A model generated the notes under the pieces. The model was not told the origin of the DNA and ran no database searches. It was given only the letters and a program-made list of their open reading frames with translations. Shown here piece by piece: positions 28,659-29,247 of a stretch of DNA of 58,458 nucleotides. The position numbers were made by a program, and so were the translations under genes. The DNA is taken from IMG/VR virus record IMGVR_UViG_2724679172_000006. One strand, written 5' to 3'. Numbering within the stretch: position 1 is the first letter of the stretch; each line of letters opens with the position of its first letter. The DNA is from a virus. Taxonomy: Duplodnaviria; Heunggongvirae; Uroviricota; Caudoviricetes.

Positions 28659-29081
28659 ATGTCATTCTTTTCTACGTTAAAAACAGCTTTGTCTTTGAAG
28701 GAGAAACTTGCTGCTACTGGTGTTCTTGTTCTGATTTGCGCACTTGTTGGTGCCGGGTTTGCATGGGAACGTCATCAGCTAAAGCAAGCCATGGAGAAAA
28801 TTGGCAGTCTTGATCAGGCTGTTAAGGAACGTGATAAGTCAATAATGGATCTTAACCAGGCCATTGAGACGATGAACAAAGCAGAGCAACATTTTCACAG
28901 CCAGGAAGTGAAAAATGAATCAGAACAAGCCAAGTATGCTGACAGGCAAATGGAACGAAAAGCTGAAGTTCAGAAACAACTGGTTGCGGCGGGTAATGTT
29001 CGCCAGCGTATTCCTGCTGACACTCAGCGGTTGCTCCGGGAGTCGATCAGCGAATTTAACGCCGACGCCGACAAAGGTTAA
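28659..29081 (+). CDS. i-spanin-like protein (Rz-like)
   Basis: N-terminal transmembrane helix (GVLVLICALVGAGFAW) then charged coiled-coil; AGGAGGAAGAC-ATG; overlapped at 3-prime end by lipoprotein ORF. Confidence 0.45.
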   Translation: MSFFSTLKTALSLKEKLAATGVLVLICALVGAGFAWERHQLKQAMEKIGSLDQAVKERDKSIMDLNQAIETMNKAEQHFHSQEVKNESEQAKYADRQMERKAEVQKQLVAAGNVRQRIPADTQRLLRESISEFNADADKG

Positions 29082-29247
29082 CCACCCTGCCCCAAAAAGT
29101 GCATTTATGTGCAGGATGCCAGAGTTTAGCAGTGAATATTTTGATGATCTGCCAGCGTATATCCTCGATACAGAAACGATGCTGATGGGGATTAACAGGA
29201 AGAATCGCAACGTTAATGATTACAACCGCGCTATCAGCGGTAACTAA
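28996..29247 (+). CDS. o-spanin-like outer-membrane lipoprotein (Rz1-like)
   Basis: Lipobox LTLSGC after hydrophobic signal; Pro-rich mature part (LTPTPTKVNHPAPK); start inside the 3-prime end of preceding gene in another frame. Confidence 0.45.
   Translation: MFASVFLLTLSGCSGSRSANLTPTPTKVNHPAPKSAFMCRMPEFSSEYFDDLPAYILDTETMLMGINRKNRNVNDYNRAISGN

Follow-up and report, generated by a model that had tools for sequence, protein, structure and literature searches.

The stretch of viral DNA analyzed here (IMG/VR record IMGVR_UViG_2724679172_000006, Caudoviricetes; 58,458 nucleotides, in the following referred to as the window) contains at positions 28659-29247 two overlapping genes, ppfA and mlp, that very probably code for the two-component spanin of the P1 family, with PpfA as the inner-membrane component (i-spanin) and Mlp as the outer-membrane component (o-spanin). 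The anatomy of this gene pair, its identity with genes of phage P1, the conservation of its two reading frames, and its location apart from the other lysis genes are directly observable. Both open reading frames (ORFs) are found where an earlier note on this DNA, written from the nucleotide sequence alone, had proposed an overlapping spanin-like gene pair. The window represents a P1-like phage-plasmid (Punavirus) and is reversed relative to the P1 reference; it is a mosaic with vB_EcoM-813R1 and RCS47 as its closest overall relatives, and the 2-kb region compared exhibits 95.9-99% nucleotide identity to RCS47, SJ46, P1, and P7. The two genes correspond to P1 ppfA (gp064, 'possible periplasmic function') and mlp (gp063, 'membrane lipoprotein precursor', relabeled 'Rz-like spanin' in RefSeq). 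When counted from its proximal ATG (83 amino acids), Mlp is 100% identical to its P1 counterpart, while PpfA is 98.6-99.3% identical to P1-family copies; the comparison with the reference P1 genome NC_005856 (98.6% identity) reveals just two differences, M45 for I and A68 for T.

The ppfA gene (28659-29081; + strand, as for the other genes of this locus) encodes a protein of 140 amino acids, and its ATG is preceded at a distance of 5 nt by the sequence AGGAGG (28648-28653), for which an anti-Shine-Dalgarno duplex of -10.3 kcal/mol is calculated. The top-scoring 19-residue Kyte-Doolittle window of PpfA comprises residues 17-35 (2.35), a second segment of this type is absent, and the first 16 residues contain K8, K14, and K16 versus E15. 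PpfA is hence predicted to possess a type II topology with a single N-terminal transmembrane domain (TMD; residues ~17-35) and a helical domain (residues 37-140) that would reside in the periplasm. These 104 residues are 36% charged (18 K+R, 19 D+E), and contain one Pro and no Cys residue. In an AlphaFold2 model built from an alignment of 20 homologues (mean pLDDT 71), a helix extends from residue 13 to residue 110 and runs unbroken through the TMD segment; it is followed by a break at residues 111-119 (AAGNVRQRIP) and a second helix formed by residues 120-137. Within residues 46-73, the hydrophobicity at the a/d positions of the heptads amounts to 0.825, a value reached by 0.2% of 500 shuffled sequences (0.45 +/- 0.09), while the distal helix (residues 75-110) is devoid of a clear heptad pattern. 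The N-terminal membrane helix and the charged coiled-coil domain that had been read from the letters were thus both recovered, and the coiled-coil prediction suggested as a check came out in favor of the proposal. With its single N-terminal TMD and a mostly alpha-helical periplasmic domain of coiled-coil character, PpfA has the features by which i-spanins are recognized, and it is matched by the PHROG profile phrog_89 ('Rz-like spanin'; E 2.6e-25).

As annotated in P1, the mlp gene (28915-29247) encodes a precursor of 110 amino acids in the +1 frame relative to ppfA. This frame is open from 28912 to 29247 and offers, in addition to the annotated ATG at 28915, a proximal TTG (28984) and a proximal ATG (28996). 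The precursor carries a lipobox, L-S-G-C (29023-29034, within LTLSGC; Cys codon 29032-29034), and reads MFASVFLLTLSG up to the lipobox Cys, which would be lipidated and would become residue 1 of the mature o-spanin. The residue at position +2 is a Ser and not an Asp, and the Asp+2 signal for retention in the inner membrane is thus absent; therefore, sorting of Mlp to the outer membrane is expected. A LipoP cleavage site between residues 39 and 40 is reported for the P1 protein in SpaninDB (PMC6139136), an outcome in line with the check that had been proposed. In a crude six-frame scan of the window for ORFs that combine a usable start codon with a lipobox and a hydrophobic stretch free of charged residues, exactly one lipoprotein-signal-like ORF was detected, and this is mlp (0.27 per window in shuffled sequences); the lipobox protein in the other frame that the earlier note had described is thus the only one of its kind in the window. 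Its mature part, calculated at 71 amino acids, was likewise said to be Pro-rich, a description that fits its beginning, with five Pro residues among the first 23 positions, and is less apt for the mature part as a whole, which possesses six in total. Beyond the lipobox Cys, mature Mlp contains one other Cys. It is located (codon 29110-29112) in the segment MCRMPE (29107-29124), part of the conserved motif FMCRMPEF whose flanking Phe codons lie just outside these positions; it is invariant in the alignment and in all lineages, aligns with a Cys of P2 LysC, and is a candidate for the formation of an intermolecular disulfide bond. At least one periplasmic Cys available for such a bond is present in 507 of 528 spanin pairs (Kongari et al. 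2018, PMC6139136), and in the ppfA/mlp pair it is provided by Mlp, since the periplasmic part of PpfA has none; SpaninDB lists the P1 proteins in the same way (no periplasmic Cys in the i-spanin, 'one in TMD'; one in the o-spanin). Mlp is matched by phrog_30284 ('Rz-like spanin'; E 3.1e-57) and by phrog_456 (E 8.4e-5). An AlphaFold2 model of Mlp contains a predicted C-terminal helix that, given its low confidence (pLDDT 54.6), can be taken as a hint only.

The i-spanin gene comes first in this arrangement, and the two genes overlap by 167 nt when mlp is counted from its annotated ATG and by 86 nt when it is counted from the proximal ATG; the same overlapped organization is found in all homologous loci. 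Pairwise diversity at the third codon positions of ppfA is 0.46 in the first 336 nt of the gene and falls to 0.20 in its last 87 nt (Mann-Whitney p 4.5e-6), and 17 of the 29 third positions in this terminal part are invariant as compared with 11 of 112 upstream. Such a drop is predicted if a second frame is under constraint, and it shows the last 87 nt of ppfA (28995-29081) to be a dual-coding core in which both frames are under purifying selection. In the part of the locus that belongs to mlp alone, the first, second, and third codon positions of the mlp frame have diversities of 0.14, 0.10, and 0.45, respectively; variation is concentrated at the third position, the pattern of a coding frame. 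These data bear on the idea that the lipobox ORF is a mere chance open frame within and behind ppfA that is not expressed. Such an idea could draw on the fact that the 5' part of mlp is often missed by gene callers and that the protein is represented by neither a Pfam nor an NCBIfam model. Its probability is next to nil, since the ORF is the sole lipoprotein-signal match in 58 kb, its frame, lipobox Cys, second Cys, and C-terminal motif are conserved, its codon-position diversity is that of a coding frame, the synonymous sites of ppfA are suppressed exactly from the start of its signal peptide, and it is homologous to P2 LysC (see below). As judged from the conservation of the sequences, this explanation may be regarded as effectively refuted.

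The conservation of the pair was followed through five divergent lineages (Cronobacter phage JK004, a Salmonella plasmid contig, a JGI metagenome contig, a Klebsiella contig, and Enterobacter contigs), in which PpfA is ~59-64% identical to the protein of the window and the +1 frame is open throughout. The lipobox Cys is retained in all six lineages (the window included) within the sequences LTLSGC, LTLSAC, LTLNGC, or TVLVAC, and the Cys of FMCRMPEF as well as the C-terminal motif INRKNRNV are kept in all of them. Among 83 further P1-type loci (the best 80 IMG/VR loci, all at least 96% identical, and three GTDB loci), LSGC is intact in 83/83 and the full 110-aa mlp ORF is present in 76/83. Loss of the lipobox in homologues, an outcome that would have spoken against the proposal, was consequently not seen. 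Wider searches for homologues retrieved P1-like elements only (down to 59% identity in the protein database, three loci in GTDB, and the best 80 loci in IMG/VR), and no lineage with the pair inside a lysis cassette or with another architecture was found in these three collections. In a study of 77 P1-like plasmids, mlp and ppfA are counted among the 21 'extremely conserved' genes (PMC9603915).

Spanin genes usually, although not obligatorily, reside in or beside a holin-endolysin cassette, and the ppfA/mlp pair does not. No holin or endolysin gene adjoins it, as the earlier note had pointed out; its neighbors are upfC, upfB, upfA, and oriR/repA, and tblastn searches with the P1 proteins Lyz, LydA, LydB, LydC, LydD, and LydE yielded no homologue in the window (best E 0.17), a negative result that rests on P1-type lysis proteins and on a partial collinearity with P1-like genomes (coverage 77-95%), with about a fifth of the window unscanned for other families of lysis proteins. 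The holin and endolysin genes were traced elsewhere in complete genomes. In P1, lyz/lydD/lydE are located at 20.0-20.9 kb, lydA/lydB at 30.4-31.2 kb, lydC at 31.25-31.5 kb, and ppfA/mlp at 63.35-63.94 kb, so that 32-43 kb separate the latter from the other lysis genes. The corresponding positions of lyz, lydA, and ppfA/mlp are 14.1, 35.8, and 69.2-69.8 kb in RCS47; 42.7, 31.7, and 98.2-98.8 kb in 813R1; and 82.7, 90.7, and 23.0-23.6 kb in JK004. The three loci are apart from each other in 20/20 P1-like genomes of the phage collection, including that of the distant Cronobacter phage JK004. The outer-membrane step of lysis is hence indeed genetically separated from the rest, but this had already been said for P1: Bednarek et al. 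2022 (PMC9025707), citing Summer 2007, speak of P1 spanin genes in "yet another unlinked operon", and the SpaninDB supplement (Kongari et al. 2018, PMC6139136) classifies the P1 pair as overlapped ('ovl'), gp064 being the i-spanin and gp063 the o-spanin. The gene pair and its unlinked position are thus a known and catalogued trait of P1. In the Introduction of PMC9025707, a 2022 paper on the P1 holins, ppfA is named as the o-spanin and mlp as the i-spanin; these labels are swapped, since in the sequences the lipobox marks Mlp as the o-spanin and the TMD marks PpfA as the i-spanin.

By analogy with lambda Rz/Rz1, we infer the topology, lipidation, complex formation, and lytic role of PpfA and Mlp. 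The N-terminal helix of PpfA would be anchored in the inner membrane, and its long helical and partly coiled-coil domain would reach into the periplasm. Mlp would be exported and lipidated at the lipobox Cys; after its cleavage by signal peptidase II, the Lol system would deliver it to the inner leaflet of the outer membrane. The periplasmic domains of the two proteins could then bind to each other and form a complex that spans the periplasm through the peptidoglycan mesh and that is probably dimerized covalently via the single conserved Cys of Mlp. The murein mesh would restrain these complexes until LydA, the holin, triggers and the murein is degraded by Lyz, the SAR-endolysin; only then would they be free to move and to change their conformation, and in this state they may fuse or disrupt the outer membrane as the last step of lysis.

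The genetic neighborhood of the pair bears on the timing of its expression. ppfA and mlp are the third and fourth genes of a tightly packed and co-oriented string, upfC-upfB-ppfA-mlp-upfA, which adjoins the plasmid origin oriR/repA; the order of genes is that of P1 (dmt-hrdC-uhr, followed by upfC-upfB-ppfA-mlp-upfA-oriR-repA-parA; annotation transferred from NC_005856) and is conserved in all lineages except for a variable upfA slot. The first gene, upfC (27538-27822), encodes a PAAR-like protein of 94 amino acids (Pfam PAAR_motif, E 1.1e-5; phrog_281) for which a note in the P1 annotation records 31% identity to T4 gp5.4; it overlaps by 49 nt with upfB (27774-28619; P1 annotation; phrog_1559), whose end is separated by 39 nt from ppfA, and 11 nt lie between mlp and upfA (29259-29651; P1 annotation; phrog_1453). 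Apparently, upfC and upfB form one operon with ppfA and mlp. A presumed tail-spike-tip gene, upfC, and the spanin genes would share this operon beside the plasmid origin. The slot of upfA is occupied by unrelated Phage_gp49_66 proteins in the relatives from Salmonella, Klebsiella, and Enterobacter (L004, 3209-3562; L006, 3149-3514; L008, 3149-3517), and in an Escherichia albertii protein (P0011) the N-terminal part of Mlp is fused to a Gp49-family C-terminus. The curated record of P1 lists only the predicted sigma-70 promoters P1ppfA and P2ppfA for this locus and no late promoter, and a generic scan of positions 27100-30100 for sigma-70 promoters and terminators gave results at or below the expectation from shuffled sequences. 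The only promoter annotated in P1 between uhr and upfC, which are 330 bp apart, is the leftward Pdmt; the operator of the C1 repressor, Odmt/Op68 (ATATTTATTAGAGCAAT, 27440-27456), is also found in this gap. In the main texts of the P1 transcriptome papers that were searched, mlp, ppfA, and upfB are not mentioned.

A number of observations weigh against the assignment of PpfA and Mlp as a spanin. PpfA has no Pfam family, with sub-threshold coiled-coil noise as the only outcome of a Pfam scan that returned no match for Mlp either. PpfA exhibits no significant similarity to P2 LysB (hhalign 1.1%; TIGR03495, E 0.002, 18.4 bits versus a cut-off of 92.75) or to lambda Rz (hhalign probability of 1-2% for LysB and Rz), and the notion that PpfA is a homologue of LysB or Rz was dropped because these profile comparisons are insignificant. 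SpaninDB comments on Mlp with 'Too long signal sequence', as the annotated signal peptide of 39 amino acids is unusually long (PMC6139136), and Bednarek et al. 2022 (PMC9025707) state that the function of the P1 spanin has not been verified experimentally. The late-promoter motif that we derived from P1 LPlyz and LPdar, AAGTNANTT-N4-TANNNT, has no exact match 5' of upfC, upfB, or ppfA when the whole window is scanned. When the genes were knocked down by CRISPRi, efficiencies of plating of 1.3/1.2 for ppfA and 0.24/0.19 for mlp were recorded, and both genes were scored as non-essential on plates (PMC10695390); near-normal plating agrees, however, also with what is expected of spanins under laboratory conditions. 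To this list, the fused and shortened copies of the genes that are described further below have to be added. The late-promoter motif does have two exact matches in the window, at 34511-34529 and 57256-57274 (both +), each positioned 31 nt before an ORF (starting at 34560 and 57305, respectively); the ORF at 34560 codes for 575 amino acids and lies in a region matching the major head and tail-sheath genes of P1, and the two sites probably are the corresponding late promoters of P1.

Several of these points could also be accommodated by a non-lytic role of the two proteins in the plasmid-prophage state, be it in envelope modification, exclusion, or host fitness, comparable to that of lambda Bor or T5 Llp, with expression from sigma-70 promoters and a merely convergent likeness to spanins. 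The reserved wording of the original P1 annotation, the sigma-70 promoters P1ppfA and P2ppfA in place of a late promoter, the failure to find the late-promoter motif near the operon, the adjacent oriR/repA, and the dispensability of ppfA and mlp for plaque formation (PMC10695390) would all fit. We nevertheless consider a non-lytic role clearly improbable, because a type II TMD protein with a coiled coil whose gene is overlapped by that of a small outer-membrane lipoprotein is the signature of a spanin, because Mlp is homologous to P2 LysC, and because spanin PHROGs match both proteins. Furthermore, the hexamers of the predicted P1ppfA promoter are poor at the P1-annotated positions of the window (TTGATG, 15 nt, CACAGT), and the presence in the operon of a PAAR-like and presumably virion-associated gene argues for expression during the lytic cycle.

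The fused and shortened copies raise the question of whether ppfA/mlp might be a remnant, that is, a former spanin that has become dispensable and is decaying in P1-like phage-plasmids, with the outer membrane being ruptured by other means or by shear. PpfA-Mlp fusions of 195 amino acids form the clusters P0037 (18 members), P0044, P0051, P0053, P0062, P0075 (31), and P0082 (22), with ~80 members altogether. Each of these goes back to a different 1-nt deletion within the overlap; two deletions were checked in the DNA, a change of A5 to A4 in four Logan contigs and of A3 to A2 in an NCBI assembly (loci L012-L016; runs at 28911-28915 and 28946-28948 of the window, respectively). Programmed frameshifting as the source of the fusions was rejected in view of these genomic 1-nt deletions at several different sites, and the fusions could be either sequencing errors in homopolymers or real loss-of-function alleles. 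Shortened PpfA proteins form large clusters as well. Two of these, P0069 (92 amino acids, 119 members, ending ...ESEQVC) and P0055 (113 amino acids, 96 members, foreign after ...RQME), continue into unrelated sequence, whereas P0064 (97 amino acids, 77 members) stops at ...YADRQ without any foreign residue, possibly because the contig ends there. The ppfA gene of P1-like plasmids hence seems to have been hit repeatedly by insertions or rearrangements at residues ~90-99 (window ~28930-28955), and the adjoining upfA is a known insertion site, in which phage JL22 carries a blaCTX-M-55 module (PMC9603915). Together with the non-essentiality of the genes in the CRISPRi study, the many fused, interrupted, or shortened database copies are what one would expect of a decaying locus. 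We hold a remnant to be very improbable all the same: purifying selection acts on both frames across lineages that are only ~60% identical, the lipobox and the full-length mlp ORF persist in nearly all IMG/VR and GTDB loci (83/83 and 76/83), both genes belong to the 'extremely conserved' set of the P1-like plasmids, and many of the fusions stem from read-level assemblies and affect homopolymer runs, so that they may be sequencing errors. A functional spanin therefore is, in our view, the reading to be preferred.

Within the framework of a functional spanin, the start codon of mlp deserves consideration. Inside ppfA, a Shine-Dalgarno (SD) sequence, AGGAAG (28903-28908), precedes the upstream ATG (28915-28917; combined feature 28903-28917), and all six lineages possess an upstream in-frame ATG with an SD sequence (-5.0 to -11.6 kcal/mol), the ATG being shifted downstream by one codon in those that are not of the P1 type. 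Its use would yield a signal peptide of 38-39 amino acids with a net charge of +6 to +8 in the n-region. On the other hand, the 81 nt that separate the upstream ATG from the proximal start impose no extra constraint on the synonymous sites of ppfA (0.44 vs 0.47), and the N-terminal extension is the most polymorphic part of Mlp among the P1-type sequences. Met1 of P2 LysC aligns with residue 24 of Mlp, which is encoded by TTG in P1-type sequences and by ATG in four other lineages; in JK004 this codon is not a start codon, and a GTG is found four codons upstream instead. The proximal starts are preceded by weak SD sequences (-0.5 to -6.5 kcal/mol). Translation of mlp could thus begin at the upstream ATG, at a proximal start, or at both. 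One may speculate that the use of the upstream ATG, with its very long and basic signal peptide, or of dual starts adds a layer of timing through slow export to the disruption of the outer membrane, and that a spanin produced from non-late promoters, without an Lpa-dependent late promoter, is pre-loaded in the envelope; we regard this as rather unlikely.

As a discovery, the ppfA/mlp pair carries little weight, as it has already been catalogued, with an unlinked position that is a textbook oddity of the scattered lysis genes of P1. Its practical value lies in annotation. The 589-bp ppfA/mlp unit is present in 646 of 5,426 complete E. coli genomes (~12%), where 645 of 662 places are on plasmids, nearly always P1-like phage-plasmids, and among the matches listed the E. 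coli entries name it 'hypothetical protein (x2)'; it is also found in 651 PLSDB plasmids from Escherichia, Salmonella, Klebsiella, Shigella, Cronobacter, and Enterobacter. RefSeq copies of Mlp from E. coli are mostly named 'hypothetical protein' as well. Gene callers, and some curated records, routinely call just the 43-65 C-terminal residues of Mlp that do not overlap with ppfA, whereby the signal peptide and the lipobox are lost although the ORF is intact in the DNA (L002, 2617-2748, RCS47 mlp; L003, 4118-4252, JK004 gene_24; proteins P0007-P0010 and P0013-P0020). A ppfA gene with 99% identity to the E. coli P1-type gene occurs on a 5.9-kb contig (L019, JAFAFU010000017.1) of a metagenome-assembled genome labeled 'Bacillota bacterium', where it most likely is a binning contaminant. 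Elsewhere in the window, tRNA genes for Met-CAT, Thr-TGT, and Asn-GTT, a C4 antisense RNA (RF01695, 76.7 bits), and an adjacent isrK-family match (RF01394, 58.3 bits) were detected (listed jointly at 21383-21458, 23086-23239 (-), and 46164-46374 (-)); the C4 RNA fits the immunity (c4/ant) region of P1.

Among the known systems, the lysB/lysC pair of phage P2 is closest in its geometry. In both cases, the o-spanin gene begins in the 3' part of the i-spanin gene, is read in the +1 frame, and extends past its end, and the sizes are similar, with 141 and 96 amino acids for LysB and LysC and an overlap of 146 nt as compared with 140 and 110 amino acids for PpfA and Mlp and an overlap of 167 nt. Mlp and LysC are 37% identical over 68 amino acids (pairwise BLASTP, E 1e-7) in an alignment that spans the signal peptide, the lipobox, the Pro-rich linker, and the C-x-MP motif. 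The two systems differ in that the P2 genes are part of the lysis cassette Y-K-lysA-lysB-lysC, whereas the P1-type pair in P1 is 32-43 kb away from holin and endolysin genes, and in that the signal peptide of LysC has a normal length of ~20 amino acids, whereas that annotated for Mlp has 39. On the basis of these sequence comparisons, we would assign the pair to the P1 family of overlapped two-component spanins, the o-spanin of which is a distant relative of LysC, and not to the LysB family.

With the Rz/Rz1 pair of lambda, the P1-type pair shares its predicted parts, a type II inner-membrane protein with a coiled coil and a small outer-membrane lipoprotein that contains Pro residues and is encoded in the +1 frame. 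The earlier note had seen in it the classic overlapped architecture of Rz/Rz1, and this is correct as far as an overlapped spanin pair is concerned; in lambda, however, the pair directly follows S and R, and Rz1 (46186-46368) is fully embedded in Rz (45966-46427), whereas mlp merely overlaps with ppfA in the geometry of lysB/lysC. Mature Rz1 consists of 40 amino acids, and mature Mlp is longer. Both lambda proteins contain periplasmic cysteines (C99 and C152 in Rz, C29 in Rz1; PMC6139136), whereas in the P1-type pair such a residue is confined to the o-spanin. The PseT.3/PseT.2 system of T4 has separated and not overlapping genes, and no sequence similarity to the P1 pair was detected; its i-spanin lacks periplasmic Cys residues, while cysteines are present in the o-spanin, which has a predicted C-terminal helix (PMC6139136), and the restriction of the periplasmic Cys to the o-spanin is a feature that the T4 and P1-type pairs have in common.

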